Assembly: GCA_003223415.1 (NCBI GenBank)
Contig: QHUY01000028.1
Location: forward strand, 1,270-65,269
Reading direction: 5' to 3'
Length of the DNA: 64,000 nt
Source: Gemmatimonadota bacterium
GTDB lineage: Bacteria; Gemmatimonadota; Gemmatimonadetes; Gemmatimonadales; GWC2-71-9
Below are positions 1 to 61,597 of the stretch, piece after piece. Position numbers and translations under genes: made by a program. Numbering within the stretch: position 1 is the first letter of the stretch; each line of letters opens with the position of its first letter. The notes below the pieces were generated by a model. It was not told where the DNA came from and did no database searches. It was given only the letters and a program-made list of their open reading frames with translations.

Positions 1-30
1 GGCTAGGGGCTCGGGGATCGGGGCTCGGGC
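1..30. repeat. Tandem heptamer array, family D (GGGGCTC/GGGGATC units), truncated by the window edge
   Basis: Read directly as ggctagg ggctcgg ggatcgg ggctcgg. The unit is the same as in the arms of 52271-52357. The array abuts the stop codon (32-34) of the minus-strand CDS. Confidence 0.6.
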
Positions 31-31
31 G

Positions 32-943
32 TCACGGAGCGGCGATCAAGCGCCGAATCAGATCCGCCCTCGTCAAGAAACCAACGACGGTGCCCTCGCG
101 CACCACGGGGAAGCGGTCGACGTCCTTGCTGTTCATCAAGTTCGCCACGTCGGAGAGCGTTTGCTCCTCCGAGAGACACAGCACGGTGCGCGCCATCGCT
201 TCCTTCACGAGGAGCCGACGAGGGTCGGCGCTGCCGCGCTGGAGCTGCGCGGCTGTGGGGGCGCGGAACTCGCCGCTCTTGGTGCGCTGCAAGTAGCTCG
301 GGATCAGGTGGCGCAGCAGCTCGCGGTGCGTGATGATGCCGACCAGCGCGCCGGAATCGTCCACCACGGGCAGCGCGCGCACGTCGTGCTCGAGCAGGAA
401 CTTGGCCACCTCCCCGAGCGTCTGGTCGGGCTTGGCCGTGTAGACGTGCGGGGTCATGACGTCCCGGACCGTCAGGTGGGTGGGCAGCTCGATCGCCCCG
501 AAGGCGCCCAGGGCCACTACCTGCTCCGGCGTCTTAGCGGCGAGCAGCGAAAGCACCGTCTCCGGGTTGCTGAGCGCGCGCGCGAAGGCGCCCACCACCT
601 GCAGGTAGGTCGGCGTCTCGCGCGGTGGGGCCACGATCAGGATCACCACCCGTGCCGTGCGGTGGGGGTCTTTTTCCCAGCGGATCGGCGTCGGGGCGAT
701 GCCCACCGCGGACACCAGACCGGTCACCGCCTCGGTGCGGAAATGCGGCAGGAAGGCGTGCTCGCCGACGCTGACCATGTCTTCGGGCCAGGCGTGCTTG
801 ATGACGGCCGTGAGCCGCTGCGGCTCGGTCACCGCGCCCGCCGCGATCAGGCGCTCGGCCAGCTGCTCGGTGGCGTCCTTCACGGTGGCGGCCTGGAGCG
901 GTACCACCACGTGCTCGGGCTTCAGGACGTCGCCGAGCTTCAC
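32..943 (-). CDS. PTS EIIA type-2-like domain plus tandem CBS domain protein
   Basis: The C-terminal 303 aa of ORF 32..1924 are protein-like. The GTG start forms a GTGA overlap with the sucD stop. The N-terminal half resembles an EIIA-2 fold and the C-terminal half has two CBS repeats (VMTP...[13 protein letters not shown]). Confidence 0.6.
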
Positions 944-1809
944 AACCGTTCCTTCAGCAGCGGCACGACGTCGGCGGGGCGTTTCATCACGCCGATCCCG
1001 GCCGCGGCGAGGGCCCGCATCTTCTCGGCGGCGGTGCCGCTCGACCCGGAGATGATGGCGCCGGCGTGCCCCATGCGGCGGCCCGGCGGCGCCGTCTGCC
1101 CGGCGATGAAGCCGACCACGGGCTTGGTCATCCCTCCCTTGACGAACTCGGCGGCGAGCTGCTCGTCGGTGCCGCCGATCTCGCCGATCATGACGACGGC
1201 CTCGGTCTCCGCGTCGGCCTCGAACGCGGAGAGGCAGTGAATGAAGCTGGTGCCGATGATCGGGTCGCCGCCGATGCCGACGCACGTAGACTGGCCGAAG
1301 CCCTGGGTCGACAGCTGATGGATGATCTCGTAAGTGAGCGTGCCGCTGCGCGACACCACGCCGATCTTGCCCGGCGTGCAGATGTTGCCGGGGATGATGC
1401 CCACCTTGCTCTGGCTTGGGGAGATGAGCCCCGGGCAGTTCGGCCCGATGAGCCGGGCGCCGCGCTCGTGCACGAACGGGATGACCTTCGTCATGTCGAG
1501 CACCGGGATGCCCTCCGTGATGCACACGACCAGGCCGAGCCCCGCGTCCACGGCTTCGAAGATCGCCGAGGCCGCCGCGGCGGCGGGCACGTAGATCACC
1601 GCGGTGTTCGCCGCGGCCTCCGCAACCCCTTCCGCGACGGTATTGAACACCGGCACCAGGCCCTCGAACAGCTGGCCCCCTTTGCCGGGCGTCACGCCGG
1701 CCACGACCTTGGTGCCGTAGCTCAACATCTGCTTGGCGTGGAAGGAGCCGTCCCGCCCGGTGATGCCCTGGATGAGCAGGCGCGTCTCCTTGTTGATGAA
1801 GATGCTCAC
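940..1809 (-). CDS. sucD: Succinyl-CoA synthetase alpha subunit
   Basis: Motifs SRSGTLTYE and [10 protein letters not shown] (phosphohistidine loop). GTGA overlap with the sucC stop. 289 aa. Confidence 0.93.
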
Positions 1810-2942
1810 GCCGCCCGCTCCACAGCCTGCTTGACCGCTTCGTCCATGTCGGTGAGGGCAGAGTAACCGGCCTTGGTGAGGATTTCCACCGCCTCCCGCT
1901 CGTTGGTGCCGGTGAGCCGGACAATCAACGGTACCCTGAGGGGGAACCGACTCGTCGCCTGCACGATCCCGTTGGCGACGTCGTCGCAGCGGGTGATGCC
2001 GCCGAAAATGTTGAAGAGGATCGCCTTCACGTTGGGGTCGGCGGTGATGATCGCGAGCGCGTCCACGACCTTCTGCGGGTTGGAGCTGCCGCCGATGTCG
2101 AGGAAGTTGGCGGGCGCGCCGCCGTAGTATTTCACCAGGTCCATGGTGGCCATGGCGAGGCCCGCCCCGTTGACGCAGCAGCCGACCGTCCCCTCCAGCT
2201 TGATGAACGTGAGCCCGGCTTTCCGGGCCGCGACCTCCGATGGCGCTTCGGCGGTGGCGTCCCGCAGGGCGGCAATCTCCGGCCGGCGCTCGAGCTCGTT
2301 GTCGTCCACCACGATTTTCGCGTCGAGCGCCACCACCGCGCCGTCGGGTGTGGTCACGAGGGGGTTGATCTCCGCGAGCGAGGCTCCGACCGCGTAGACC
2401 GCGGCGGCGAGTTTCTGCATGATGTCCGCGGCGGCGCGCGCCGCGCCCAGGCCCGGATAGAGCTTGAAGCCGAGGCCGAGCGCCTGGTGCGGCAGCAGCC
2501 CGAAGCGGGGATCGATCGCGAGCCGGTAGATCTGCTGAGGTGTCTGTGCGGCGACTTGCTCGATGTCGATCCCGCCCGCCGGGCTGACCATCAGCACGGG
2601 GCGCTGCGAGGCGCGGTCGACGATGATGCCGACGTAGCTCTCGGATGCGATCTCGGCCGCCGGCGTGACCAACACCTTGTGCACCGGCAATCCCTTGATG
2701 GTCATGCCCAGGATCTGCGTCGCGGCCGCGGCGGCCTCGGCTGCGCCGCTCGCCAGTTTGACGCCGCCGGCTTTGCCGCGGCCGCCGGCATGCACCTGGG
2801 CCTTCACCACGACCTTGCCGCCCCCCCCCAGGCGAGCGGCGATGGCGCGTGCCTCCTCGGGGCTCGCGGCCACGGCGGCCGCGGGCATGGGAATGCCGTG
2901 GCGCTGGAGGATCTCTCGCGCCTGGTATTCGTGCAGGTTCAC
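1806..2942 (-). CDS. sucC: Succinyl-CoA synthetase beta subunit
   Basis: [12 protein letters not shown] and [15 protein letters not shown] (ATP-grasp). 378 aa. Confidence 0.93.
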
Positions 2943-4019: not shown

Positions 4020-6521
4020 TCAGGGGGAGTGAGCAAGCTTGAGCAGCTCCGAGAGCCGGCGGTACAGCGCGGCGAACCGCTCCAGGTCCCCGGCGGCCAG
4101 GGCGGCATCGGCTGCGGCGGCGAGGCGTTGGGCCTCCCGCCAGCGGCCCCGGAGCGTCGTGTCGGCCGGGGCCCCAGGGGTCGACAACATGTTCCGGAGG
4201 GCGGCGAGCGGCGTCGGCCCCACGCCCCGCCGGTTGCCCAGTGACAGGTAGACGCGCAGCAGCCGAGGGGGGGGGGCGCCGTCGGTGTCGATCGCCTGGG
4301 CGAACTGCGCTTGGGTGGCGAGCAGCTCGCCGCCCGCCGGCCAGAGACGCAGCACCCCCGGCTTCGTATCCGCGGCGCCGAGCACATCCGGCGGCCGGGG
4401 CTCTCGCCGCATGGGGCGCCACAGGTAGAGCCGGCGGCCGAGGGGCGTCACGGTGCCGGCGAGCAGCGCCTCGAAGCGCTTCTCCGTCGTGGCGTTGGAC
4501 TCGAACCCCTGCGCGGTCCAGCGGGTGAGGTGCGCTCCGCCGTCCGGGTCCGGCGCGACGAGGTCGAAGGGGTCGCTCGGCCGCGGGGCCCAGCCGAGCG
4601 AGTCGCCCTCGAGGCGCTCGAGCGCGGCCGCGGCGAGTCGGAAGGCGCCGCGTGGATAGGGCAGTTGGGCGCGCAGACCGGCCGGCAGGCTGTCGAGCGG
4701 CTGGACGAGCGGGGCGAACAGCCGCGCCCACGCCGACGTGAGCGAGTCCGTGCCAGGCGCAAACCAGAGACGCGTCTCTCCGGTGGCGGCGTTCACGCCC
4801 CCGAGCAGCCCGGCCCGGCGAAAGCCCACCGGGCGGTCCTGCCAGGTGATGGGCCGCGCGAGCGGGAACGCGTCGCTCTCCACATAGCCGTAGGCGAGCC
4901 ACCACAGGGCCCCCCCCCGAGCGAGGACGGGTGCCGGCCGATCGAACTCCGCGAAGGGCGCAAGCCGCGAGAGTCGTTCCGTCACGTCGCGCCGCCACAG
5001 GAGGAGCCAGCCGCGCGTCCCGGCGCGGGCCAGCTCGGGACTCTGCAGCACCCACGCCAACGCCAGCCGCCGCCAGCGGCCTTCGAGGGGAATGCCCGCG
5101 GCGCGCAGCACCCGCCCTTCCCTGCCGGCCGTGTCCGCGATGACGAACTGCCCGAACCCGGGACCGAACCAGGTCTCGGCCGGCGCTTCCACGAGCGGCT
5201 CGAGGGCCAGCCCGGTGTCCGTCTCCTGAGCGGCGAGCGGCGGGCCCGTGTGCGCCCAGGCGCCGCGGTGGACGTCGTCCCAGGCGGGCTGGGGCTGGAG
5301 CAGCAGCAGGGATGAGTCGTCGGGCGCCGGGGCGACGATCCAGCGGCGCCGCGCGGGGACGGTGGGCAGGGGAGCGCCGTCGGGCGAGGCGGCGAGAGCA
5401 ACGCCCGCCACGGTGGCGCGGGGGCCGAGCTGGGAGGTGCGGCCAACGACCATGGCTACGCGGCCGGCGTCCCACTGCGGCAGCGCCCCCAGCGCCTGGT
5501 CCACGCCGGCGAACTCAGGCGGCGCGCGCCGCTCGAGGCTACCCCCGTCGGCTCCGAACGCGAGCCGCTCGAACTGGGCACGCTGGGCCGGATAGGGAGG
5601 ATCGAGGCCGCGATCAGCGCGCGTACGCCTGCCCCCGGCCGCCCCACGAGCGATCGCCGGGAGCAGGCCGTACACGCCGACGAGGGCCAGCAGCAACGCC
5701 CCCCAGGTACCGCCGAGGAATCCGGTGCGATCGCGCCAACCCCACGCGAGACTCGCCAGCGCCGCCGCCACTGCGAGCACGGCCACGACGGGCGCTCCCG
5801 GTAGCCGCACGTTGAGGAGCGCGCGGTCTACCACACCGTGCAGCCCTGCCACGACCTCGGCGGGATCGAGCCACGCGCCCCACGCGAGCGCCATGGCGAC
5901 GCACGCGAGCAGCACACCGAGATGGCCGCGTGCATGCTGGCTCGCCACCGGGCGACCGCGCGAAAACCGCAGTGAGCCGATCCCCATGTAGAGCAGCGCG
6001 ACGACGACGGTGGCCGTCGCCGCCGCGAGCAACGCGAAGCTCTGGCGGGTCTGCGCCCACGGCAGCTCGCCGACGTAGTAACCGAGGTCCTTGCCGAGCA
6101 CGGGATCTGAGATCCCGAACTGCGGGGGTGCCGTTGCCAGGGCCGCCTGGCGCCACCAGTCCCCTGTGCCCCACGAGAGCCCGATCCCGAAGAGCAGCCC
6201 GCTTGCCAGCGTCACGGCGAGCAACACGCGCTGCGGCACGGCCTCGACGATCTCGAGGTTGCCGAGGCGGCGAGGCATCTGCACCGAGCCGATCACCCGG
6301 TAGACGAAGTAGACGTGGATGGTGCCCCAGGCGACGGCGAGCAGCAGGATGGCGAGCCGCACGACGCGCGCGAGGGCCCGGGCGTCGAGGTAGACGCTCC
6401 CCGCCGGCACACCGGCGGCCCACGCTCGCTCGGCGGTCTCCAGCGCCAGCCACCGCCCCCCCACCAGCAGGACGACCAGCACCGCGGCGGCCGCGACCAC
6501 GCTCCAGCGGCGCCGGGCCAT
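4020..6521 (-). CDS. UPF0182 family large membrane protein
   Basis: N-terminal multi-TM region containing DPVLGKDLGYYVGELP, the family-typical D-P-x-x-G-x-D-L-G-x-Y-x-x-E-L-P. Large soluble C-terminal part. The internal ATG at 6521 (MARRRWSVV) was chosen because upstream ORF sequence is Arg/Ala-rich low complexity. 833 aa. Confidence 0.75.
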   Translation of the reverse strand: MARRRWSVVAAAAVLVVLLVGGRWLALETAERAWAAGVPAGSVYLDARALARVVRLAILLLAVAWGTIHVYFVYRVIGSVQMPRRLGNLEIVEAVPQRVLLAVTLASGLLFGIGLSWGTGDWWRQAALATAPPQFGISDPVLGKDLGYYVGELPWAQTRQSFALLAAATATVVVALLYMGIGSLRFSRGRPVASQHARGHLGVLLACVAMALAWGAWLDPAEVVAGLHGVVDRALLNVRLPGAPVVAVLAVAAALASLAWGWRDRTGFLGGTWGALLLALVGVYGLLPAIARGAAGGRRTRADRGLDPPYPAQRAQFERLAFGADGGSLERRAPPEFAGVDQALGALPQWDAGRVAMVVGRTSQLGPRATVAGVALAASPDGAPLPTVPARRRWIVAPAPDDSSLLLLQPQPAWDDVHRGAWAHTGPPLAAQETDTGLALEPLVEAPAETWFGPGFGQFVIADTAGREGRVLRAAGIPLEGRWRRLALAWVLQSPELARAGTRGWLLLWRRDVTERLSRLAPFAEFDRPAPVLARGGALWWLAYGYVESDAFPLARPITWQDRPVGFRRAGLLGGVNAATGETRLWFAPGTDSLTSAWARLFAPLVQPLDSLPAGLRAQLPYPRGAFRLAAAALERLEGDSLGWAPRPSDPFDLVAPDPDGGAHLTRWTAQGFESNATTEKRFEALLAGTVTPLGRRLYLWRPMRREPRPPDVLGAADTKPGVLRLWPAGGELLATQAQFAQAIDTDGAPPPRLLRVYLSLGNRRGVGPTPLAALRNMLSTPGAPADTTLRGRWREAQRLAAAADAALAAGDLERFAALYRRLSELLKLAHSP

Positions 6522-6523: not shown

Positions 6524-7900
6524 TCACAAGTGGACGCCGTTCGCCGCCAGCCAGCCTTCGACCTCGGCCCGGTAGGCGGCGAGCGCCTTGTCCGAGGTCG
6601 CCTCGAAGCGGAGCACCAGTGCGGGCTGCGTGTTGGAGGCCCGGAGCAGCCCCCACCCCTCCGCGAACGTGATCCTGACCCCATCCAGCGTGAACACCGG
6701 ATACTTCGCGGCGAAGTGCCGCGCGGCGCGCTCGACGACGTCGAACTTGCGCTCGTCGGGGCAGTCCACCCGGAGCTCCGGCGTCGACACCGTCCGCGGC
6801 AGATCGGCGAGGAGGCGCGACAGCGGCCCGCCCTCCCGCGCGACGTAGTGCAGCAGCCGCGACGCGGCAAACAACGCATCGTCGAAGCCGTACCAGTCGC
6901 CGCCGAAGAAGATGTGGCCGCTCATCTCTCCGGCGAGCGCCGCGCCGCTCTCCTTCATCTTCTGCTTGATCAGCGAGTGGCCCGTCTTCCACATCAGCGG
7001 CACGAGGCCGGCGCGCTGCAGCATCTGCGGCAGCACCTCGGAGCACTTCACGTCGAAGATGACCGGCTTGCCCGGGCCGAAGCGCCACGCCAAGTCCCGG
7101 CCGAACAGCACCAGCAGCGTGTCGCCGAACACCGGCGTGCCCCGCTCGTCCACGGCCCCGATGCGGTCGCCGTCGCCATCGAAGGCAATGCCGAGCTCCG
7201 CCCGCTCCTGTACGACGGCGGCCTGAAGGTCCTTCAGGTTCTCGAGCACCGTCGGGTCGGGGTGGTGGTTGGGGAACCTGCCGTCCGACTCGGCGAACAA
7301 GGGCACGACGTCCGCGCCGAGCTGCCGCAACGTGTCGATCGCGATCAAGCTCGCTACGCCGTTGCCGCAGTCCGCGACCACCTTCACACGTCGGGCGAGC
7401 GGTGCGTTACGGGCGACGATAGCGTCGCGGTACTCGGTGAGGAGGGAGCCATGCGCGGTGAGCCGACCCCCGGTCCGGGTCTCCGTGCGGTTGTCGTCGA
7501 TCATCTCGCGGAGGCCTTGGATCTCCTCCCCGTAGATCGCCTCGTCGCCCAGCACGAGCTTGAAGCCGTTGAACTGCGGAGGGTTGTGCGAGCCGGTGAC
7601 CTGCACTCCCCCGTCCACGTCGAGCGTGTGCGTCGCGAAGTACAGCGCGGGGGTCGGGCATTCCCCCACGTCCACCGCAGTGCCGCCCGCCGCCACGATC
7701 CCCGTGCGCACGCCGTCCGCGAGGTCCGCGCCCGAGGGACGATTGTCCCGCCCCACGGCGAGGCGTGGGGCGCGGCCCAGTCGCTGGCTACCGAGCGTCG
7801 TGACCGCCGCGGCGATGGCGTGCGCGACGTGGGCCGTGAGCTGGTCGCCCACGGTGCCGCGGATGTCGTATTCCCGGAAGATGGTGGCGGGGACGTACAC
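6524..7900 (-). CDS. Phosphomannomutase/phosphoglucomutase
   Basis: IFREYDIRG and TGSHNPPQFNGFK (active-site Ser loop). GTG start at 7900. 458 aa. Confidence 0.88.
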   Translation of the reverse strand: MYVPATIFREYDIRGTVGDQLTAHVAHAIAAAVTTLGSQRLGRAPRLAVGRDNRPSGADLADGVRTGIVAAGGTAVDVGECPTPALYFATHTLDVDGGVQVTGSHNPPQFNGFKLVLGDEAIYGEEIQGLREMIDDNRTETRTGGRLTAHGSLLTEYRDAIVARNAPLARRVKVVADCGNGVASLIAIDTLRQLGADVVPLFAESDGRFPNHHPDPTVLENLKDLQAAVVQERAELGIAFDGDGDRIGAVDERGTPVFGDTLLVLFGRDLAWRFGPGKPVIFDVKCSEVLPQMLQRAGLVPLMWKTGHSLIKQKMKESGAALAGEMSGHIFFGGDWYGFDDALFAASRLLHYVAREGGPLSRLLADLPRTVSTPELRVDCPDERKFDVVERAARHFAAKYPVFTLDGVRITFAEGWGLLRASNTQPALVLRFEATSDKALAAYRAEVEGWLAANGVHL

Positions 7901-10934: not shown

Positions 10935-12920
10935 TCACCGCACCGCGACGTGCAGCACGAACAGCACGCCTGCCACGAACAGCACCACGTAGAAGCCGAG
11001 CTCGCCGGTCTGCAGCCTGGAGCCGACCCAGCCGAGGGCGCGCGAGACGGCCGCGGCGCCGTTCACCCCCGCGCCGTCCACGAGCCGGACGTCCACGATC
11101 TTCCAGAGCACTTCACGCGACAGCCACATGATCGGCCGCACGATCAGGGCGTCGTAGATCTCGTCGCCGTACCATTTCTTCCACAGGACCCGCGCGAAGC
11201 CGGTCTCGGCCGGCGCCCGCTGGGCCGGCAGGAGGTCCGCGGGGCGAAGCATCCGCAACGCGCCCGCTATGCCGGCGAGCGCCACCGCCACGGCGATCCC
11301 GATCAGCGTCCACTCGGTGCCGGACGCGACCGCGTGCGCGGGCAGCAGCGCAGCGCCGGCCTCGGTGACGGGCGCCAGCCAGCGCTCCAGGCGGCTGCTG
11401 CCGCCCAGCAATGCCGGGAGGTTGAGCACCCCGCCGACGGCCGACAGCACGCCCAGCGCCACGAGCGGTCCGGTCATGACCCATGGCGCCTCACGCAGGA
11501 GGGGACGTTCCCGCTCGCCAGTGCGGTTCGGGCCGTGGAAGGTGTAGAGCATCAGGCGCGTCATGTAGAACGCCGTGAGCGACGCGGCCGCCAGGCCCAT
11601 TCCCCAGAACAGGTACCAGATCCGCTCGACGCCGCCGCGGGCGAACGCCGCGCTCAGGATCTCGTCCTTGGAGAAGAAGCCCGAGAGCGGCGGCACGCCC
11701 GCGATGGCGAGCGTCGCGATCCACATCAGCACCCACGTCCACGGCAGGTGAGCCTTGAGCCCGCCCATGTTGCGCATGTCCTGCGCGTCTTCATGGGAAT
11801 GGGTCGCGTGGTAGGCATGGTGGATCGCGTAGATGACGCTGCCCGAGCCGAGGAACAACAGCGCCTTGAAGAACGCGTGGGTGGCGAGGTGGAAGATGCC
11901 GGCGACGGTCGCTCCTCCCCCCGTCCCCACGCCGAGGAACATGTAGCCCAGCTGGGAGATCGTGGAGTACGCGAGGACGCGCTTGATGTCCCACTGTTTG
12001 AGGGCGATGGTCGCCGCGAACAACGCGGTGAGCGCCCCGACGCCGGCGACCACGGCGCTCGAGACCGGGGCGAGCGCGAACAAGAGGTTGCAGCGCGCCA
12101 CGAGGTACACACCCGCCGTCACCATGGTCGCGGCGTGGATGAGGGCCGAGACGGGGGTCGGGCCCTGCATCGCGTCGGGGAGCCAGGTGTACAGGGGGAT
12201 CTGCGCCGACTTGCCGGTGCAGCCGAGGAACAGGAACAGCGTGATCGCGGTGACGGCGGCGCTGCCGAGCGGGAACAGGCTCCGGGCCTTCGCGAACACA
12301 TCGGTGAAATTCAGGCTCCCGGCGTGCTGGAAAATCAGAAACATGGCGACCAGGAACCCGAAGTCGCCGACGCGGTTGACGATGAACGCCTTCTTGCCGG
12401 CGTCGGCGTTGATCTGCTCGGTGAACCAGAACCCGATCAGGAGGTAGGAGCAGAGTCCCACGCCTTCCCAGCCCACGAACATCACCGGGAAGCTCGCCCC
12501 GAGCACCAGCGTCAGCATGAAGAAGACGAACAGGTTCAGGTAGGCGAAATAGCGGGCGTAGCCGTCGTCCTCCCGCATGTAGCCGACGCTGAAGAGATGG
12601 ATCAGCGAGCCGACGCCGGTCACCACGAGCAGCATGACCGCCGACAGTGGATCGACCTGCAGGGCGGCGTTCACCTGCAGGCTGCCTACGGGCATCCAGG
12701 ACCAGTAGGTGAACACGACCGGCTCCGCCGCGTGGCCGACGGCGAGCGCGCGGACCACCGCGACTGCCACGCCGAAGGCCGCGACCACCGCGCCCACACC
12801 GATCACGGAGACGGCGGTCTTGGCCGTCGGCCGCACCAGGGCGAGGGTCCCGTTCAGCACGAACCCCAGCAGCGGCAGGAGGGGAACCAGCCAGACGAGG
12901 CTCATGGCGGTGCGAGTCAT
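10935..12920 (-). CDS. nuoL: NADH-quinone oxidoreductase subunit L
   Basis: 661-aa antiporter-like subunit. TGATG overlap with nuoK. An alternative ATG lies at 12905. Confidence 0.88.
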   Translation of the reverse strand: MTRTAMSLVWLVPLLPLLGFVLNGTLALVRPTAKTAVSVIGVGAVVAAFGVAVAVVRALAVGHAAEPVVFTYWSWMPVGSLQVNAALQVDPLSAVMLLVVTGVGSLIHLFSVGYMREDDGYARYFAYLNLFVFFMLTLVLGASFPVMFVGWEGVGLCSYLLIGFWFTEQINADAGKKAFIVNRVGDFGFLVAMFLIFQHAGSLNFTDVFAKARSLFPLGSAAVTAITLFLFLGCTGKSAQIPLYTWLPDAMQGPTPVSALIHAATMVTAGVYLVARCNLLFALAPVSSAVVAGVGALTALFAATIALKQWDIKRVLAYSTISQLGYMFLGVGTGGGATVAGIFHLATHAFFKALLFLGSGSVIYAIHHAYHATHSHEDAQDMRNMGGLKAHLPWTWVLMWIATLAIAGVPPLSGFFSKDEILSAAFARGGVERIWYLFWGMGLAAASLTAFYMTRLMLYTFHGPNRTGERERPLLREAPWVMTGPLVALGVLSAVGGVLNLPALLGGSSRLERWLAPVTEAGAALLPAHAVASGTEWTLIGIAVAVALAGIAGALRMLRPADLLPAQRAPAETGFARVLWKKWYGDEIYDALIVRPIMWLSREVLWKIVDVRLVDGAGVNGAAAVSRALGWVGSRLQTGELGFYVVLFVAGVLFVLHVAVR

Positions 12921-17000: not shown

Positions 17001-17023
17001 CGGCTGTCAGACCCCCCCCCCCC

Positions 17024-18301: not shown

Positions 18302-18316
18302 CACCGGTCCTCAAGA

Positions 18317-18436
18317 GTGCGGAATGCGGAATTCGGAATGCGGAATTGGCCGTGCCATGTTCGACCTGGACGGCAGGCCGCGGGGATCGAACCTGCTCCT
18401 GCCATTCCGCATTCCGCACTCCGTATTCCGCATTGG
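18317..18436. repeat. Mirrored heptamer element, family A (unit ATGCGGA, four copies per arm, about 50-nt spacer)
   Basis: Left arm 18317-18350 reads GTGCGGA ATGCGGA ATTCGGA ATGCGGA. Right arm 18401-18436 is its imperfect reverse complement. It lies in the nuoE-nuoF gap and is flanked by TCACCGGT at 18301-18308 and 18441-18448. Confidence 0.85.
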
Positions 18437-18440
18437 TTCT

Positions 18441-21431: not shown

Positions 21432-21433
21432 AC

Positions 21434-25248: not shown

Positions 25249-25250
25249 AG

Positions 25251-42595: not shown

Positions 42596-42611
42596 GCCGC
42601 GAGGAAAATAC

Positions 42612-44495
<1,884 letters not shown>

Positions 44496-44499
<4 letters not shown>

Positions 44500-46273: not shown

Positions 46274-47111
46274 GGAGCGCGCGGGCGACGGCCGCGCGCA
46301 TCACGTCCAGGGGAGGCACTTCGCCCGGGAAGAAGCGCGTGAACGCGGCCGCCCCCTGGTGCACCAGCAGCTCGCGCCCGTCGCACGCCGTGATCCCCGC
46401 GGCGCGCAGCGCGCGGACCCAGGGCGTCTCCCCGGGGGCGTAGACGAGGTCCAGCGCGGCCCGGGTGCCGTTCAGATGCGTCGGTAGGATCGGCAAGGCG
46501 TCGGTTTCCTTGAGCCCGAGGGGCGTGGTGTTGATCACGATGTCGCACGGCTCCGTTGCCGCCGCGACACGCGCGGCGACCTTGCGGGAGGCGGCCCAGT
46601 CGACGAACGCCCGGGCGCGGCCCGGCTCGCGCGAGCGCACCAGCACCAGCGCCCGGACGTCGGCGGCGGCGATCGCGACGGCCCGAGCGGACCCACCCGT
46701 GCCGAGCACCAGCCACCGCTCGGCTCCGTCGACCCCCTCCCCCCCGCCCCCCCCCCCGACCAGGGTGTGCAGGGCGGCGCGCACGCCCGGCACGTCCGTG
46801 TTGTCGCCGACCAGCGCGCCGTGCTCGGTCCAGAACGTATTGCACGCCCCCACGCGCTCGCACAGATCCGTTTTCCGCGCGACGTACCGTTCCGTCGCTT
46901 CTTTGTGCGGCACGGTTACGTTGCCGGCCGCCTCCACGGCGGCGAGCGCCTGCAGCACGGTCGGCAAGGCCGTGGCCGAGGTGCGCAGCGCGACGAAAGC
47001 GGCATCCAGGCCCAGGGCGCGGATGGCGGCGTTGTGCATGCAAGGCGAGAGGGAATGAGCGACGGGGTCGCCGAGGACGGCGAGGAGCCGGGTACTAGCG
47101 CCGATCTCCAT
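46266..47111 (-). CDS. aroE: Shikimate dehydrogenase
   Basis: SLSPCMHNAA, NVTVPHK, GDNTD and LGTGGSARAV. It contains the in-frame G-tract GGGGGGEG. Confidence 0.88.
   Translation of the reverse strand: MEIGASTRLLAVLGDPVAHSLSPCMHNAAIRALGLDAAFVALRTSATALPTVLQALAAVEAAGNVTVPHKEATERYVARKTDLCERVGACNTFWTEHGALVGDNTDVPGVRAALHTLVGGGGGGEGVDGAERWLVLGTGGSARAVAIAAADVRALVLVRSREPGRARAFVDWAASRKVAARVAAATEPCDIVINTTPLGLKETDALPILPTHLNGTRAALDLVYAPGETPWVRALRAAGITACDGRELLVHQGAAAFTRFFPGEVPPLDVMRAAVARALRA
46733..46757. repeat. G-rich tract in aroE (coding strand G11-C-G7-A-G5)
   Basis: The plus strand reads C5 T C7 G C11, counted directly. It shares GTC-G11-C-G7 with the tpiA tract. Confidence 0.9.
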
Positions 47112-48233: not shown

Positions 48234-48934
48234 CGCAGCTCACGCGCCAGCGCCTCGGCGACCCGGAAATCGTCGGGGGTCGTGATCTTGAGGTTGTGCG
48301 GCAGGTCCGCCACGACTTCCACCGGATAGCCGGCGCGCTCGCACAGCTCGGCGTCGTCCGTCGCCGCGTCGCCGTTCTTCTTCTTGCCGTACACCTCGTC
48401 CAGCCAGGCGCGGGGGAATCCCTGCGGCGTCTGGGCGCGCCACAGGCGCTCGCGGGTGACCGTGCGTGCGATGCGAGTGCCGCCGGTCGTTTCTTTGACG
48501 GTGTCGCTCATCGGCAGCGCCGCCACCGCGCCGACGCCGGCGCGCGCGCGCGCGATTACCGCGTCGACCGTCGTGCGGCTCACGAACGGCCGCGCGCCGT
48601 CGTGCACCAGCACCACCGGGAGCCCCGGCCGCAGGGCCCGCAGGGCCGCGCGGACGGACTCCGGGCGAGTGGCGCCGCCGGCCACCAGGGTGAGCCGCTC
48701 CCCCACCAGCTTGCCGAGCCACTCGGGGGGCCGCTCCGCGAGGCCCTTCGGCAGGGCCACGACCACGTGCTCCACATCGGGATGAGAGCTGAAGGGCCGC
48801 AGCGCCCGCAGGAGCATCGGGACGCCGAGGATGGAGCGGAACTGCTTGGGCTCCCCCGGGCCGGCTCGGAGGCCTGCCCCGGCGGCTACGATGACGACGC
48901 CGACGTCAGGCGGCGAGACGACGGGCGAGCTCAC
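48230..48934 (-). CDS. ispD: 2-C-methyl-D-erythritol 4-phosphate cytidylyltransferase
   Basis: VIVAAGAGLRAG..PKQF N-terminal motif. 234 aa. Confidence 0.85.
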   Translation of the reverse strand: MSSPVVSPPDVGVVIVAAGAGLRAGPGEPKQFRSILGVPMLLRALRPFSSHPDVEHVVVALPKGLAERPPEWLGKLVGERLTLVAGGATRPESVRAALRALRPGLPVVLVHDGARPFVSRTTVDAVIARARAGVGAVAALPMSDTVKETTGGTRIARTVTRERLWRAQTPQGFPRAWLDEVYGKKKNGDAATDDAELCERAGYPVEVVADLPHNLKITTPDDFRVAEALARELR

Positions 48935-50264
48935 CGATGCCTTCCAGCCCCACGACGTCCAGACCCGCTGGAGTGACGCGAGAGCGGGCGGAGCAGAACA
49001 CCCGGCGGAATCCTTGGCGCGCCGCCTCGACGAGCCGGCGCTCGACGCCGGCCACGGGCCGGATCTCGCCCCCCAGGCCTACCTCGCCGAGGAACAGTGC
49101 GTCGGGGGGAGTCGGGCGGTCGTGGATGCTGGAGACCAGGGCCGCCGTGACGGCGAGGTCGGTCGAGGGCTCCAGCAATCGCACCCCGCCCGTGACGTTC
49201 ACGAATACGTCCAAATCGCCGACCGGCAACCCCCCGCGCCGCTCCAGCACGGCCAACAGCACGGCGAGCCGCCGGTGGTCGAGGCCGGTCGCCACGCGCT
49301 GCGGGGTGCCGAAGCCCGCCTTGGAGGCGAGCGCCTGGATCTCGACGAGCATCGGGCGCGTCCCTTCCATGAGGGCGGTCACGGCCGAGCCGGAGACGCC
49401 CGTGTGACGGCCGGCGAGGAACGCTGCGGCCGGGTTCGCCACCGGCGCGAGGCCGGCCCCGGTCATCTCGAAGACGCCGATCTCATCGACCGAGCCGAAG
49501 CGATTCTTGACGGCGCGCAGAATCCGATGGTCGAGGGTTGCCTCGCCCTCGAAGTAGAGCACCGTGTCCACGATGTGCTCGAGCGTGCGGGGGCCGGCGA
49601 TGCCCCCGCCCTTGGTGACGTGGCCGACGAGCAGCACCGCAGGCCCCGCATCCTTGGCGAAGCGCATCAGCCGGGCGGCGCACTCGCGGACCTGGCCGAC
49701 GTTGCCCGGGGCGCCCTCCAGCTCGTCGGTATAGGTGGTCTGAATCGAGTCCACGACGACGACGCGCGCGGCGAGGGCCGCGGCGTGGTGCACGATGGCC
49801 TCGAGCCGGGTCTCGCCGAGGACACGGACAGCGCCGGCGTCGTCGCCGAGGCGGTCGGCGCGCAGGCGGATCTGCTCGGGGGATTCCTCGCCGGAGACGT
49901 ACAGCGTCGCCACGCCGGCCTGCTCGAGGCGCGCCGCGCACTGCAGCAGCAGGGTCGATTTGCCGATCCCGGGCTCGCCCCCCACCAGGACGATGGAGCC
50001 CGGCACGATCCCGCCGCCGAGCACGAAGTCGAATTCGGCGAGGCCCGTGCGCCACCGCGCCGCCGCCGCGCCACCGACGTCGGCCAGTCGCACGGGCGGA
50101 CGGGCCGACGGTAGCGGCCCCGTCCTGGCCGCCCGAGCGCCCGGCCGCCCGACCGCCTCTTCCAAGAGCGTGTTCCAGGCGCCGCACGCATCGCAGCGGC
50201 CCGCCCACTTGGGCTGCTCGGCGCCGCATTCGGTGCAGCGGAACACCGACCGCGCTCTAGCCAT
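48906..50264 (-). CDS. radA: DNA repair protein RadA/Sms
   Basis: Zinc finger CTECGAE..CDACGAWNT, Walker A GGEPGIGKSTLLLQ, KNRFG, and a Lon-like C-terminus. 452 aa. Confidence 0.93.
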   Translation of the reverse strand: MARARSVFRCTECGAEQPKWAGRCDACGAWNTLLEEAVGRPGARAARTGPLPSARPPVRLADVGGAAAARWRTGLAEFDFVLGGGIVPGSIVLVGGEPGIGKSTLLLQCAARLEQAGVATLYVSGEESPEQIRLRADRLGDDAGAVRVLGETRLEAIVHHAAALAARVVVVDSIQTTYTDELEGAPGNVGQVRECAARLMRFAKDAGPAVLLVGHVTKGGGIAGPRTLEHIVDTVLYFEGEATLDHRILRAVKNRFGSVDEIGVFEMTGAGLAPVANPAAAFLAGRHTGVSGSAVTALMEGTRPMLVEIQALASKAGFGTPQRVATGLDHRRLAVLLAVLERRGGLPVGDLDVFVNVTGGVRLLEPSTDLAVTAALVSSIHDRPTPPDALFLGEVGLGGEIRPVAGVERRLVEAARQGFRRVFCSARSRVTPAGLDVVGLEGIGELARRLAA

Positions 50265-51672
50265 GCGCGGTCCCCGACGGGGCCTCGAGCTTCGAGAGGT
50301 TGTCGAAGCGGGTGTATTCCTTCTTGAAGTAGAGCTTCAAGGTCCCCGTCGGCCCGTTGCGCTGCTTGCCGACGATCAGCTCGGCCAGCCCTTCGATACT
50401 CTCGTTCGTTTTCGGGTCCACCGGGCCGTCGTAGAGCTCCTGGCGGTAGATGAAGCAGACCACGTCGGCGTCCTGCTCGATGGCGCCCGACTCGCGCAGG
50501 TCGGAGAGCTGGGGCCGGCGGTGCTCGCCCCCCCGTTGCTCCGGGGCGCGCGACAGCTGCGACAGCGCAACGACCGGCACGTCCAGCTCCTTGGCGAGCG
50601 CCTTGAGGGCACGCGAGATGTAGGAGATCTCCTGCTGGCGGTTTTCGGCGTCGCTCGGCCCCTGCATCAGCTGGAGGTAGTCCACGACGATCAGCCCGAC
50701 ATCCTGGTCCACCTTGAGCCGTCGCGCCTTGGACCGCATCGCCAGTGGTGTGAGGGCGGCGGAGTCGTCGATCCAGATCGGCGCCGTGCCGAGCAGGCCC
50801 GCGGCGCGGGCCAGCTTGGGGTAGTCGTCGTCCCGCAGTTGACCGCGCCGCAGCCGTTGGGCGTCCACCAGCCCTTCGGAGCAGAGCAGCCGCTGCACCA
50901 GCGCGTCCTTGGACATTTCCAGCGAGAAGATGGCGACGCCAACCTGGTGCTCGATGGCGGCGTGCTGCACCACGTTGAGGACCAGCGCGGTCTTTCCCAT
51001 GGCGGGCCGCGCGGCGATGATCACGAGGTCGCCCCGCTGGAACCCCGCCGTCAGCCGATCGAGGTCCACGAACCCGCTCGGGACGCCCGTCACCGAGCCG
51101 TGGCCGCTCTGGAGCCGCTCGATGCGCTCCATGGTCGGCCAGATCAGCTCCTTGAGGCGGGTGAACTCCTCGGCGCGCCGGAACTGCGCCACCTGGAAGA
51201 TCCGGTGCTCGGCGTTGTCGAGCACCTCCCCCGACGTGCCGCGCGATTCGTAGACGTCCTGGACGATTTCGGTGGCGGCCTCGACCAGCCGGCGCAGCAC
51301 CGCCTTGTCGCGAACGATGCGAACGTGGTAGTCGAGGTTCGCGGCCGTGGGGACGACGTCGATGAGCGCGGCGACGTACTCCATGCCGCCCGCGCGGTCC
51401 AGGTCGCCGCGACGCTGCAGCTCGTCGCGCAGGGTGACCGGGTCGATGACGTCGCCGCGCTCGGCGAGGGCCTGCATCGCCCGGAACAACAGACGGTGGC
51501 CCTCCCGGTAGAACATCGTATCGTCGAGGAACTCGGCCGCTTTGAGGGCCGCGTCCTGGTCGAGCAGCATCGCGCCCAGGACCGCCTGCTCCGCCTCGTT
51601 GCTCCACGGAGCCTGGCGCCCGACAAACGCGCGCTCAGCGGTCGAGGAGGCGGCGGGCGATACGGACGTCAT
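50257..51672 (-). CDS. dnaB: Replicative DNA helicase DnaB
   Basis: AEQAVLGAML N-terminal domain and Walker A ARPAMGKTALVLN. 471 aa. Confidence 0.93.
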   Translation of the reverse strand: MTSVSPAASSTAERAFVGRQAPWSNEAEQAVLGAMLLDQDAALKAAEFLDDTMFYREGHRLLFRAMQALAERGDVIDPVTLRDELQRRGDLDRAGGMEYVAALIDVVPTAANLDYHVRIVRDKAVLRRLVEAATEIVQDVYESRGTSGEVLDNAEHRIFQVAQFRRAEEFTRLKELIWPTMERIERLQSGHGSVTGVPSGFVDLDRLTAGFQRGDLVIIAARPAMGKTALVLNVVQHAAIEHQVGVAIFSLEMSKDALVQRLLCSEGLVDAQRLRRGQLRDDDYPKLARAAGLLGTAPIWIDDSAALTPLAMRSKARRLKVDQDVGLIVVDYLQLMQGPSDAENRQQEISYISRALKALAKELDVPVVALSQLSRAPEQRGGEHRRPQLSDLRESGAIEQDADVVCFIYRQELYDGPVDPKTNESIEGLAELIVGKQRNGPTGTLKLYFKKEYTRFDNLSKLEAPSGTAHG

Positions 51673-52435
51673 CCCAGGTCGGTCGCTTCCAGTTGGGGTT
51701 GCGCAGCAGGGCCGCCGGGTGATAGGTGACGATCAGCGGAATGCCCCGGAAGCGGTGCATCTTGTTCCGCAGGGCACCCAGCGCCTGCTTGGTGTCGAGC
51801 AGCGTCTGCGCCGCCGTCCCGCCCATCGCCAGGATCACCTTGGGGGCCAACAGCTCGAGCTGGCGGAACAGGTACGGCGTGCACGCGGCGATTTCATCGT
51901 ACTGCGGAGCCCGATTCTCCGGCGGGCGGCACTTCACGACGTTGCAGATGAACACCAGCTCGCGCGGCAGGTCGATGGCGGCGAGGATCTTGGTCAGCAG
52001 CTCGCCCGCTTGCCCCACGAACGGCCGGCCGGTCGCATCCTCCGTGCGGCCCGGCCCCTCTCCCACCACGACGAGACGCGCGTCCACCGGGCCCTCGCCC
52101 GGGACCGTGTGCGTGCGGCTCTCGCACAGCCGGCACCTGGTGCAATCGGCCACCAGCCGGGCGACGGCGCCCAAGTCGGCGGCCTGCTGGACCGGATCCG
52201 TGGAGAACAGGTCGCCGGATGGCGGGTCGAACGAGAGCCCTGGAGGTAGGAGCTCGGATGGGGCGGCGGCGGGACTCGGGGCTCGGGACTCGGGACTCGG
52301 GGGGAGCGCGCCCGACCTCGAGCCCCCCGAATCCCGAGCCCCGAGCCCCGAGTCCCCAGGCAGCACGACCGTGTCTCCCCCCACGAGCCGCTGCTGTTCC
52401 AGGTATGCGCGCGCCAGTGCCCGAGCGTCGCTCAC
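51635..52435 (-). CDS. udg: Family 4 uracil-DNA glycosylase with N-terminal extension
   Basis: CTRCRLCE, VGEGPGRTEDATGRPFVGQAG and HPAALLRNP. GTGA overlap with the coaBC stop. The linker contains the family D hairpin. Confidence 0.85.
   Translation of the reverse strand: MSDARALARAYLEQQRLVGGDTVVLPGDSGLGARDSGGSRSGALPPSPESRAPSPAAAPSELLPPGLSFDPPSGDLFSTDPVQQAADLGAVARLVADCTRCRLCESRTHTVPGEGPVDARLVVVGEGPGRTEDATGRPFVGQAGELLTKILAAIDLPRELVFICNVVKCRPPENRAPQYDEIAACTPYLFRQLELLAPKVILAMGGTAAQTLLDTKQALGALRNKMHRFRGIPLIVTYHPAALLRNPNWKRPTWDDVRIARRLLDR
52271..52357. repeat. Mirrored heptamer element, family D (GGGACTC/GGGGCTC), about 34-bp stem with 2 mismatches, inside the udg CDS
   Basis: Left arm 52271-52304 and right arm 52319-52357, compared base by base. 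The spacer is 14 nt. Confidence 0.88.
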
Positions 52436-59950: not shown

Positions 59951-61140
59951 GCGGGGCCCTCCCCTCCCCCGGCGCCGCCGCCGCCGCTGCTCCCGCCGCC
60001 CTCGCCCCGCTTGCGCACGGGGACCCACTTGCGGTCCATCGCGCCGACGTACTCGGCGCGGGGGCGGATCAGCCGATTGTCGCCGTGCTGCTCGAGCACG
60101 TGAGCGCACCAGCCGCTGACCCGGCTCACCGCGAAGATCGGCGTGTACAGGTCGAGCGGGATGCCCATGACGTAGTAGGTGGAGGCGGAGTAGAAGTCGA
60201 CGTTGCAGTACAGCCCCTTGTCGCGCTTCATCAGGTCCTCGATGGTGCGTTGCATCGCGAACCATTGGGACTGGCCGGCCTTGCGACCCAGCTCCTCGGA
60301 CATCCGCCGCAGGTGCGCCGCCCGGGGGTCCTCGGTGCGATATACACGGTGCCCGAAGCCCATGATCTTCTGCTTCCGCGCCAGCGCCTCGCGGATCCAC
60401 GCCTCGGCGCGATCCGGCGTCTTGATGTCCAGGAGCATCTTCATCACTTCGGTGTTGGCGCCGCCGTGCAGCGGCCCCGCGAGCGCCGCGATCGCGCCGG
60501 TCACCGCCCCGTGCATGTCGGCCAGCGTCGCCGCGATCACCCGGGCGGCAAAGGTCGAGGCGTTGAGCTCGTGGTCGGCGTGGAGAATGAGCGCGATGTC
60601 CAAGGCGTGCTCGACCTCGGTCTCCGGGACCGCGCCCGACGTCATGTACAGGAGGTTGGCGGCCAGGGCGAGCCCACGACGCGGCGCGAGCGGCTTCTGG
60701 CCGTTCCGCAGCCGGTGGAACATGGCCACCATCGTCGGCAGCTGCGCGATCAGCCGCACCGCCTTGCGGTACTCGGCGGCGGCCGAGTTGTCGTGGCGAT
60801 CCGGGTCCCCGAACACCGAGGCGCTCACCGCGGTCCGCAGCACGTTCATCGGATTCGCGCTGAGCGGCGCGTCTTTGATGACACGCTGCACGACCTTGTC
60901 CAGCTTCTGGGCCGCTTTGAGCTGGGCCGCGAATGTTTTGAGCTGCTCGCGCGTCGGCAGGTCGCCCTTGAGGAGCAGATAGGCCGTCTCCTCGAAGGTG
61001 GAGTGGTCGGCCAGGTCGTGGATGTCGTAGCCGCGATAGATGAGCCGGCCTTCCTCGCCGAACACGTAACAAATGGCCGACTCGTTGGCTACGACCCCTT
61101 CCAGGCCCCGGGACAGCGCGGTTTCAGCAGCGGTGGGCAT
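59947..61140 (-). CDS. gltA: Citrate synthase (short type II-like form with Gly-rich C-terminal tail)
   Basis: GFGHRVY and [10 protein letters not shown] motifs. 397 aa. Confidence 0.9.
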
Positions 61141-61225
61141 AGGTCGGGAACACCAATTCGAAGTTGAGGTAAATGCTCTAGACGGTGCAGTCTACCTAGC
61201 CCGGGGCGGGTTGCGCCAGCCGCGG

Positions 61226-61239
61226 GTGTACGCGTACAC
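61226..61239. promoter_or_regulatory. Perfect 14-bp palindrome GTGTACGCGTACAC, candidate operator upstream of the plus-strand four-gene cluster
   Basis: Read directly. It ends 10 nt before the ATG at 61250 and just before the GAGG ribosome-binding motif. Confidence 0.4.
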
Positions 61240-61249
61240 TTGAGGCCCG

Positions 61250-61597
61250 ATGCGACGCGGATCGCTGTTGCCGACTCTCGTACTGGCCGCGGGCACCTGG
61301 CTCGCCGCCGGGTCGGGCGGCGTGACGCTGCGGGCGATCGCCGCCTGCCGGCACCACGCCGCCGCGCACGCATCGCACGCCGGGCACCATACCGAGGTGC
61401 CGCCCGGCACGCCGTGCTGGTGCGACGAGATGACCGGCGGCGGTGACGCGCTGCTGGCACCCGCCCTGCCGGCTCCGACGGTGGTCGCACCGATCACCGA
61501 GGCGGTGATCGCTGCCTTGCCATTCCCCATTCCCCTTTCCCCCTTCCCCGGTTTCGTCCGGGGTCCGATTCCACCCCCTCCGAACCCGCTCGCCTGA
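61250..61597 (+). CDS. Small secreted His/Cys-rich protein (hypothetical)
   Basis: Signal-like N-terminus MRRGSLLPTLVLAAGTWLAAG, then CRHHAAAHASHAGHH...CWC. GAGG lies upstream. The C-terminal approximately 25 aa are encoded by a heptamer array. Confidence 0.5.
   Translation: MRRGSLLPTLVLAAGTWLAAGSGGVTLRAIAACRHHAAAHASHAGHHTEVPPGTPCWCDEMTGGGDALLAPALPAPTVVAPITEAVIAALPFPIPLSPFPGFVRGPIPPPPNPLA
61522..61582. repeat. Half-array of heptamers (ATTCCCC x2, TTTCCCC, CTTCCCC) plus an ATTCCACCCCCTCCG segment related to family A
   Basis: Read directly. ATTCCACCC(C)CTCCG also occurs in the right arm of 45657-45728. No mirrored partner was seen. Confidence 0.6.

Follow-up and report, generated by a model that had tools for sequence, protein, structure and literature searches.

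Mirrored tandem-repeat hairpins in operon gaps and protein linkers of Gemmatimonadota, with a REPIN-like palindromic microsatellite as a candidate explanation

A 64,000-nt stretch of the genome of a soil bacterium of the Gemmatimonadales (Gemmatimonadota; contig QHUY01000028.1 of assembly GCA_003223415.1, positions 1,270 to 65,269 of the forward strand; hereafter the window) holds a set of mirrored tandem-repeat hairpins. Each element consists of a short tandem array, mostly with 7-nt units but in some cases with units of 8 or 13-14 nt, followed 0-115 nt downstream by its reverse complement. Because the arms are mirrored, either DNA strand and any transcript can fold into a stem of 25-45 bp. 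These elements form a real and statistically robust class, which was partly anticipated by one paper on Xanthomonas. We favor the reading that they are REPIN-like palindromic microsatellites, which maintain themselves at the DNA level, are largely selfish or neutral, and form RNA stem-loops as a side effect. We give this reading an even chance of being correct.

The elements of the window are listed below. Fold z-scores are relative to dinucleotide shuffles, and the partner score rates the reverse-complement partner of an array.

A1, 18305-18440: mirrored heptamer hairpin, unit TGCGGAA/AATGCGG, arms 18318-18346 and 18404-18432, spacer 57 nt
B1, 21432-21546: mirrored hairpin, 13-nt unit of CGTCGAGG plus a purine tail, folding free energy (dG) -65.4, z = -7.1
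C, 23008-23074: GCCATCA array of 6.6 units (23008-23053) and a short inverted copy, TGATGGCTGACGGC, of approximately 2 units, z = -5.3
B2, 25157-25250: mirrored hairpin with a 13-nt unit, paralog of B1, dG -65.4, z = -10.7
D2, 52262-52365: mirrored heptamer hairpin, GGGACTC/GGGGCTC, arms 52270-52304 and 52323-52356, dG -92.4 kcal/mol, z = -7.8
A2, 45657-45728: decayed mirrored AATGCGG element, z = -1.7, partner score 9
A3, 61520-61549: lone C-rich heptamer array, CCATTCC/ATTCCCC, 4.3 units
D1, 1-29: lone heptamer array at the window edge, GGCTCGG/GGGGMTC, 4.1 units
Possible ninth element, approximately 50085-50165: decayed, octamer-type arms GGTCGGGCGG... / ...CCGTCCGCCCG, z = -1.1 in the window

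The initial annotation had listed eight mirrored sites. A1, B1, B2, C, and D2 are strong hairpins, and their mirrored architecture was borne out where it had been placed by the sequence, the inverted repeats, and the folds. In contrast, A2 is decayed, and A3 and D1 are lone arrays. The RNA folds of the five strong elements ranged from -41 to -92 kcal/mol (z = -5.3 to -10.7), and their single-stranded DNA folds had z-scores of -3.8 to -11.3. The arms of A1 are 90% complementary (RNA dG -69, z = -5.7; DNA z = -5.7). In a scan that combined Tandem Repeats Finder (TRF) with a search for reverse-complement partners, the five elements scored 13-27, while background arrays did not exceed 10; C, which is asymmetric, scored 13. 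No mirrored partner was found for A3 (z approximately 0 on both strands, partner scores 4 and 3) or, inside the window, for D1 (partner score 5). TRF assigned a period of 7 with 4.1-6.6 copies to A1, C, D2, A2, A3, and D1, and the period of the B elements is 13.

Mirrored arrays, defined as arrays with a reverse-complement partner within 120 nt, exceed chance. Eight were observed in the window, against a mean of 0.02 and a maximum of 1 in 100 dinucleotide-preserving shuffles, a type of control that the initial annotation had named among the conditions that would overturn its claim. In 708 kb of Gemmatimonadota DNA, 18 arrays were mirrored, while reverse-only and complement-only controls yielded 1-2.

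The unit sequences had been described as unrelated. This is correct for B and C, which are distinct. However, the units of A, A3, and D, written in the same register, are GCGGAAT, GGGGAAT, and CGGGACT, which are 1-3 bases apart. Within the window, these three families represent one theme with variations. Furthermore, the unit of A3 is ATTCCCC/GGGGAAT rather than ATGCGGA, as had been proposed, and the ninth, decayed element was absent from the earlier list.

The positions of the elements are precise. A1, B1, B2, and C each fill the stop-to-start space of co-directional genes (flanking genes were assigned by Pfam), and their predicted stems start 0-5 nt past the stop and end 1-12 nt ahead of the next start. 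A1 occupies the space from the nuoE stop (18441) to the nuoF start (18304); both genes are on the minus strand. B1 fills the entire gap from the nuoA stop (21547) to the nuoB start (21431), with a stem that closes 0-1 nt from both codons, and B2 fills the gap from the stop of a DUF4953 zincin gene (25251) to the start of an M28 peptidase gene (25156). C lies between the stop of this same peptidase gene (23075) and the start (22992) of an open reading frame (ORF) of 138 residues. The nuoE ORF (18441-19724) encodes 427 residues, of which the 2Fe-2S thioredoxin-like domain covers only 283-427; the long N-terminal extension appears to be conserved, with tblastn aligning query residues 1-427 in close relatives.

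Other elements are translated. D2 is read in frame within the linker of a uracil-DNA glycosylase of family 4 (UDG; ORF 51635-52435, minus strand), the UDG domain of which comprises residues 112-256. The first 24 residues of this ORF overlap the coaBC stop; in dozens of relatives, they are conserved and share the frame of the UDG domain. A2 is in frame in a ComF-like phosphoribosyltransferase (ORF 45518-46273, minus strand), between the GAF and LVDDV motifs. The ninth element is in frame in the RadA/Sms linker (ORF 48906-50264, minus strand), between the zinc ribbon and the ATPase, and its ortholog in locus L245 (L245:13487-13580) folds with z = -6.6. The RadA/Sms linkers of several Gemmatimonadales (L245, L256, L270, and L202) hold in-frame mirrored octamer hairpins of the GGACGGTT or GGGCGGTC types. 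UDG, RadA, and ComF are three DNA-metabolism genes within 7 kb, each of which hosts such an element. The lone array A3 is in the divergent gap between citrate synthase (minus strand) and a porin (plus strand), and D1 directly adjoins, on the 3' side, the stop (32) of a minus-strand PTS-EIIA/CBS gene. An automatic classification into coding and intergenic copies was not used because its thresholds were too strict and known in-frame copies were misclassified.

Orthologous sites were compared in nuoF loci L001-L038 and coaBC loci L201-L280, mostly from metagenome-assembled genomes (MAGs); loci L081-L200 had been chosen for holding an A array. The genome of the window is represented by its 64 kb, in which NuoF is 91% identical to that of a Gemmatimonadota MAG and CoaBC 92% identical to that of a Gemmatimonadales MAG. 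The nuoE-nuoF junction also carries an element in L001 (AATGCGG/AGTGCGG), L005 (ATTGCGG), and L006 (TGATCAT). This gap measures 136-143 nt in the window and L001, versus 0-3 nt in L002, L004, and L036. Similarly, the nuoA-nuoB gap spans 115 nt in the window, and in L001, which holds a related element, it spans 108 nt, versus 4-22 nt in L003, L004, L005, and L036. At the C site, the array is absent in L003 and L004. At the B2 site, L001 has an orthologous element with the unit GCGTCTAACAAAG, and L003 is empty.

Covariation was measured formally at the comF loop. In most Gemmatimonadales, it contains an in-frame mirrored heptamer hairpin, the intact ortholog of A2, while in more distant genomes (L217, L238, L240, L257, L259, L271, and L278-280) it is only 11-13 residues long. 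The unit differs by lineage (AATGCGG, ATTGCGG, AACGCGG, or AGTGCGG), and both arms always change together. Across 16 orthologs, 90.8% of cells were paired, versus 80.1% in shuffles, and 39 double-sided changes were counted, versus 12.7 expected; neither value was reached in any of 500 shuffles. Controls with slid partners were 24-54% paired. The encoded peptide varies (RNAECGMRN, RIADCGLRI, and RNAEGGTRN), although pairing is kept. In L226, two identical comF elements with identical flanks (17904-17981 and 18537-18614) lie 633 nt apart, which reflects a local duplication of a comF segment or an assembly artifact.

The UDG linker exhibits the same turnover, with the units GGGACTC in the window, GGGGCTC in L202, GGGAGAC in L204, GGGATGC in L206, and GGCGGAC-like in L213 and L214; the L203 linker holds a decayed copy. 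AT-rich mirrored units (TGATCAT and ATTGGACATTGATCA types) occur where relatives hold GC-rich units, at nuoE-nuoF in L006 (2560-2636) and in the comF loop of L232, L245, and L272. At the same UDG and ComF positions, many sister genomes carry a REPIN-looking double palindrome, ACCCCGGGCnnnnGCCCGGGGTCAG plus its inverse, similar to repetitive extragenic palindromic (REP) sequences and translated in frame (TPGLRPGS...LTPGASPGK). It was found in the UDG linkers of L207, L209, L211, L212, L215, L216, L219, L223, L229, L231, L232, L238, and L241, and in the comF loops of L241, L251, L261, and L270. This sharing of sites with REP-like double palindromes supports the favored reading.

Copies within one genome resemble each other more than copies at the same site across genomes, as judged by sequence identity. 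B1 and B2 are identical at 84 of 92 positions (91%) over their full length, including the center. The L001 elements at both B sites are identical to each other at 61 of 75 positions and have a different tail (AACAAAG). Meanwhile, B elements at the same site in different genomes have only 67-76% identity, with many gaps. In L145, the arms of an element in rsmA flank and partly replace conserved native coding sequence (NVEVVAGDALK); there is no block insertion, and the spacer is itself native coding sequence. Therefore, conversion fits this arrangement better than simple insertion.

We propose slippage and template switching as the process that maintains these elements, and we likewise propose their neutrality and their effects on translational coupling and RNase III. 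Replication slippage would make and homogenize units within one arm. Intramolecular template switching or hairpin-templated repair (quasi-palindrome correction) would then copy changes into the other arm, so that units turn over in both arms together. Quasi-palindrome template switching is established for Escherichia coli. Whole elements would occasionally be copied to, or gene-convert, other sites, which would produce genome-specific families. They would survive only where a compact symmetric hairpin is tolerated, namely, in exact stop/start gaps of operons and, in frame, in flexible protein linkers.

The pattern of mismatches is consistent with a process acting on DNA. Selection at the mRNA level would leave more G.U than A.C mismatches on the sense strand. 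This was not seen: the comF alignment has 11 G.T versus 15 A.C mismatches, and 37 hairpins have 20 versus 28, with the sense strand of some of these assumed from the orientation of the locus. The difference between sense and antisense fold energies (ddG) was also mixed in sign. We accordingly rejected sense-strand RNA selection, and a DNA-level process that treats both strands alike is favored; the lack of an excess of flanking repeats (see below) and the conversion-like arms of L145 argue in the same direction. An apparent abundance of CCTTGACG (G.T) variants in family B was an artifact because the search pattern required one perfect CGTCGAGG arm.

Effects on the transcript are nevertheless to be expected under the favored reading. 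Since a co-transcribed stem would join the stop to the next start and sequester the start region, translational coupling is expected, and stems that close 0-12 nt from the stop and start probably keep or enforce it. The 25-45-bp duplexes formed here are also plausible substrates of RNase III, for which the hmw hairpin described below (PMC12721329) gives support.

The two arms have a preferred order. The G-rich array (G>C, usually purine-rich) was the 5' arm in 93 of 106 mirrored pairs, a ratio of 93:11, and in 59 versus 10 when the A units were set aside. In 1.9 Mb of Gemmatimonadota DNA, tandem-arm hairpins were G-first in 33 versus 3 cases, while non-periodic hairpins of similar strength showed 6 versus 8. 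Family B was G-first in 18 versus 0. Many of the 33:3 cases are orthologs of three sites, family B is a single family, and loci L081-L200 were pre-selected, so that the cases are not all separate events. In the window, A1, B1, B2, and D2 are G-first, and C is the exception. A mirrored homopolymer hairpin in L261 (17170-17290), a G-run followed by a C-run, is likewise G-first. The arm order is intrinsic to the element because a hairpin presents the same 5' arm whichever strand is read. As stem stability is equal either way and the rule is strand-independent, the direction of replication or transcription cannot explain it. A process of origin that builds the G-rich strand towards the center may underlie the rule. 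Alternatively, exposed C-rich 5' RNA arms may be kinetically counter-selected, an idea that rests on the preference of Rho for C-rich, G-poor RNA.

The class extends beyond Gemmatimonadota. In 2.24 Mb of fetched loci, the arrays of each period were distributed as follows.

Period 6: 69 arrays, 1 with a mirrored partner
Period 7: 390 arrays, 187 (48%) with a mirrored partner
Period 8: 31 arrays, 10 with a mirrored partner
Period 9: 92 arrays, 6 with a mirrored partner
Period 13: 10 arrays, 6 with a mirrored partner

The bystander units in these loci are very diverse (AGGAGTC, GTTGAAG, TAAGTGA, AGACAGG, TGATCAT, and others). An exact search with 2.7 units of the A repeat matched more than 120 loci. 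Among the matches listed, the hosts were Acidobacteriota, Planctomycetota, Verrucomicrobiota, Nitrospirota, Chloroflexota, Gemmatimonadota, Clostridia, Bacteroidia, and Cyanobacteria, and approximately 40% of the arrays were mirrored. In-frame copies were found in bioA (L084) and rsmA (L145). We drew no conclusion on AATGCGG as a special universal unit because, on a rough estimate, counts of this size would be within reach of any heptamer, provided that arrays are common. The search for family B, made with three units, identified 23 Gemmatimonadales loci, of which 15 were mirrored and 10 came from one MAG (DATNDQ01). Outside Gemmatimonadota, 3 of 52 matches to the B pattern were mirrored; most of these matches were assumed to be coding-sequence coincidences, and they were not used.

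Therefore, the class is set by its architecture and not by one sequence, as initially suggested: the units are diverse, 187 of the 390 period-7 arrays are mirrored, and many phyla are involved. The initial annotation had further argued for a common generative mechanism or a structure-specific function rather than the spread of one sequence family. However, families also spread or homogenize as whole elements. Since B1 and B2 are 91% identical and one MAG holds at least 10 B copies, "rather than spread" is a false dichotomy.

Several further loci contain related arrangements. In L322 (3700-3900), a mirrored B-family element lies between the 3' end of a tRNA and the start of tuf (EF-Tu). In Dokdonella (Gammaproteobacteria), mirrored CGGGAAT, GGGATTC, and GGGAATG hairpins are present between nuo genes (L066:9255-9400 and 11330-11475; L071:1125-1260, 5660-5830, and 7775-7885), a parallel both to the nuo operon of Gemmatimonadales and to the repeats published for Xanthomonas. 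In L091, L107, L139, L142, and L143 (Planctomycetota and Blastocatellia), several different heptamer arrays stand back to back in one intergenic region, such as (GGCAAAT)n-(AATGCGG)n-(GGGGAGT)n, or (AATGCGG)n then (GAGTGAA)n.

An alternative that we consider unlikely, but which keeps some weight, is that the elements are functional RNA stem-loops kept by selection on RNA, with intercistronic RNase III processing, 3'-end protection, factor-independent termination or attenuation, or the enforcement of translational coupling as candidate roles. The intergenic copies all begin 0-5 nt past a stop, within transcribed operons, compensatory changes preserve pairing, and T-rich runs follow some B copies (e.g., L292). 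There are also published precedents: a hairpin with a heptamer simple sequence repeat (SSR) in the hmw 5' untranslated region (UTR) of Haemophilus influenzae is cut by RNase III (PMC12721329), and the Xanthomonas repeats are transcribed, on average 28 nt from the upstream ORF (PMC4692102). However, the wobble bias expected on the sense strand is absent and ddG is mixed in sign, as described above. The same kind of element is in frame in the coding linkers of UDG, ComF, RadA, BioA, and RsmA, and it is missing from the same junction in many close relatives. No element of the window passes a scan for a hairpin with a U-tract, and termination within the nuo operon would be harmful. We rejected intrinsic terminators specifically: the scan called no element in the interval 17000-26000, and terminator-like sites were as numerous as expected from shuffles.

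We hold with similar reserve the possibility that the elements represent a distinct class across many phyla with rules of its own (a period of approximately 7, the G-rich strand running 5' to 3' towards the center, and the renewal of both arms), made by a dedicated DNA process and kept for a DNA-level or co-transcriptional role. Examples of such a process would be reiterative synthesis at the 3' end, or copying by fold-back, at breaks or stalled forks. If this is the case, the elements would have a role also inside udg, radA, and comF, and unit slippage would switch these genes on or off.

It is also rather improbable, in our judgment, that the hairpins are non-autonomous mobile elements, similar to MITEs (miniature inverted-repeat transposable elements) or REPINs, moved in trans by a single-stranded DNA transposase (RAYT or IS200/IS605-like) or another enzyme that recognizes the hairpin. 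Dispersed multi-copy families homologous over their full length (B1/B2; the 10 B loci in one MAG), presence or absence at tight junctions, an 8-nt direct repeat (ACCGGTGA) around A1, and sites shared with REP-like doublets are what mobility would leave, and REP dimers, which are mostly head-to-head, typically have a fixed arm orientation as well (PMC3733652). However, target-site duplications were rejected as a general feature: in 37 elements, flanking direct repeats did not exceed displaced-flank controls, the exceptions being A1 (7-8 nt) and one L250 element. The combination of terminal inverted repeats and a target-site duplication that defines MITEs was thus not found, while HUH-type transposition would make no duplications anyway. 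Moreover, several unrelated unit families in one genome are difficult to explain with one sequence-specific enzyme, units evolve in place at orthologous sites, and the L145 spacer is native coding sequence. An incomplete scan of 20 window proteins against Pfam detected no transposase.

The remaining two readings have little weight. G-quadruplex-forming regulatory repeats, as proposed for the Xanthomonas GGGAATC and Nostoc GGGGAYT arrays, are very improbable here. D and A3 carry GGG or GGGG runs every 7 nt, approximately four units are common, and such oligonucleotides form G-quadruplexes in vitro (PMC4692102). However, G-runs are missing from most units (AATGCGG, CGTCGAGG, GCCATCA, TGATCAT, GATTTTG, and others), and the G-rich arm nearly always has a perfect complement, which favors a duplex stem over a G-quadruplex. 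Chance similarity or assembly artifacts, to which a GC-rich, low-complexity genome (the window has a G+C content of 69.5%) and MAG-based comparisons might have pointed, are practically dismissed and were refuted by the shuffles and by in-frame orthologous elements that recur in dozens of independent assemblies with lengths that are always multiples of three.

Comparisons with known systems place the elements between several of them. The initial annotation had named the short tandemly repeated repetitive (STRR) sequences of cyanobacteria as the closest analog, but the inverted heptamer pairs of Xanthomonas GGGAATC are closer (PMC4692102). Two Xanthomonas genomes hold 186 and 183 arrays, and 70-75 convergent inverted pairs per genome (Rehm et al. 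2015, PMC4692102); these arrays are intergenic, near the upstream ORF, transcribed, of unknown function, and read as G-quadruplex motifs (PMC4692102). As with the present elements, they are tandem heptamers of approximately four units, about 75% stand in inverted pairs, mostly between co-oriented ORFs, and sister species differ in the length and sequence of the arrays but retain the type. In the related genus Dokdonella, pairs of CGGGAAT arrays lie between nuo genes. The term "convergent" (PMC4692102) would fit the G-first polarity. Tandem heptamers of at least two units are found here too, and A1, B1, B2, and D2, not C, form convergent close pairs. In contrast, only D (GGGACTC) and A3 (GGGGAAT) resemble the G-quadruplex-capable Xanthomonas unit GGGNATC/GGGANTN; A, B, and C do not. 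The Xanthomonas paper describes one unit type, and not multiple unrelated families, 8- or 13-nt units, in-frame covarying copies, paralog homogenization, or a distribution across phyla.

The elements had also been said not to be single REP-type palindromes. This holds for the arms, which are tandem and not individually palindromic; however, whole elements behave like REP doublets. Like REP doublets, REPINs (Bertels & Rainey 2011, PMC3116915), and bacterial interspersed mosaic elements (BIMEs), they consist of two inverted modules that form one long hairpin, in dispersed genome-specific families between co-directional or convergent genes. B1/B2, the L001 variant, and the 10 B loci make up such a multi-copy family. 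REP doublets also keep their modules in one orientation and occasionally occur in frame within genes, often those of replication and repair (Di Nocera et al. 2013, PMC3733652). Long persistence in lineages is a further likeness. In contrast, a REP module is a 20-40-nt palindrome with a GTAG or CGTC tag, linked to RAYT, while the arms here are non-palindromic tandem arrays without a conserved tag, and no RAYT was among the 20 window proteins scanned. Family B as a CGTC- or GTAG-tagged REP was rejected because its unit lacks the form of a stem-loop and carries the tags in the wrong places; its CTAC...GTAG ends are in the wrong position and orientation for a GTAG REP.

Rickettsia palindromic elements (RPEs) are 100-150-bp sequence families without tandem-unit arms and are restricted to Rickettsia. 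They share with the present elements palindromic repeats that lie in frame in genes and are translated (PMC3733652). In the hmw 5' UTR of H. influenzae, a heptamer SSR likewise forms one arm of a long RNA hairpin (PMC12721329); the hairpin is cleaved by RNase III, with feedback from the RNA structure on changes in repeat number (Rapun-Araiz et al. 2025, PMC12721329). However, this is a single phase-variation locus, its other arm is G-rich and non-repeat, and its polarity is the opposite, with the pyrimidine-rich arm in the first position. Cyanobacterial STRR and the TAACTGA repeat of Beggiatoaceae are, like the elements here, abundant intergenic tandem heptamers with a sporadic phylogenetic distribution (PMC4679880). 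STRR-type arrays, which are direct tandem heptamers of heterocystous cyanobacteria, were correctly said to be essentially not mirrored, with one inverted case in 170 sets for TAACTGA and few pairs in Nostoc; the period matches, but our host belongs to Gemmatimonadota and its arrays are mirrored. The exclusion of CRISPR arrays was also correct because the units are 7-13 nt and contiguous with no spacers, versus direct repeats of 23-50 nt with similarly sized unique spacers. A suggested check against Rfam returned no matches in the whole window at the family gathering thresholds, and ARAGORN detected no tRNA in the window. The loops of A1 and L100 contain a tRNA T-arm-like motif, GTTCGATCC; we rejected it because GTTCGA occurred in 5 of 91 spacers versus 3.2% of random windows, which was not significant.

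Several points weigh against a self-maintaining, largely neutral microsatellite. The maintenance mechanism is our own proposal, and the same covariation would arise if compensatory selection acted on a functional structure. The long persistence of near-perfect stems in three genes throughout a clade of order level could be a sign of function. Slippage with template switching leaves the G-first polarity and the specificity for period 7 unexplained, and some B copies have A-rich and T-rich terminator-like flanks. In addition, counts taken from orthologous sites and from a single family are not independent events.

Nearly all genes of the window are on the minus strand, and two of them contain C-rich runs. 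A pgk-tpiA fusion ORF (42580-44499, minus strand) contains a 38-nt poly-C run (42905-42942), which reads as poly-G on the sense strand. The Pfam TIM match ends exactly at this run (profile positions 3-138 of 245), and 38 is not a multiple of three. An ORF in another frame with a high G+C content at third codon positions (42612-42872) probably carries the rest of TIM. The run could represent a slippage site, an error of the assembly, or a homopolymer frameshift within an essential gene. Another C-rich, homopolymer-like run (46733-46757) encodes in-frame poly-Gly between the N- and C-terminal domains of an aroE-like shikimate dehydrogenase.

Heptamer repeats have been reported as the commonest long simple-sequence repeat in prokaryotes, with no known cause (PMC4679880, citing Mrazek 2007). 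The present results revealed that approximately half of the heptamer arrays sampled are halves of hairpins, and that many unrelated units share this architecture across Gemmatimonadota, Acidobacteriota, Planctomycetota, Verrucomicrobiota, Nitrospirota, Chloroflexota, Clostridia, and Xanthomonadales-type Gammaproteobacteria. The puzzle of the Xanthomonas "G-quadruplex repeats" thereby becomes a general problem of hairpin microsatellites, to which the present analysis added many unit families, the specificity for period 7, the polarity rule, covarying translated copies, and concerted evolution between paralogs. The stems are kept for long periods, even when translated, through changes that are symmetric at the DNA level, and they provide a natural covariation data set for distinguishing DNA-level from RNA-level maintenance. 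They also represent a hazard for annotation because the low-complexity inserts in UDG, ComF, RadA, BioA, and RsmA belong to nucleic-acid elements rather than to the features of the proteins. Should the polarity rule arise from the way in which the elements are made, an uncharacterized bacterial pathway of DNA synthesis or repair would be indicated.

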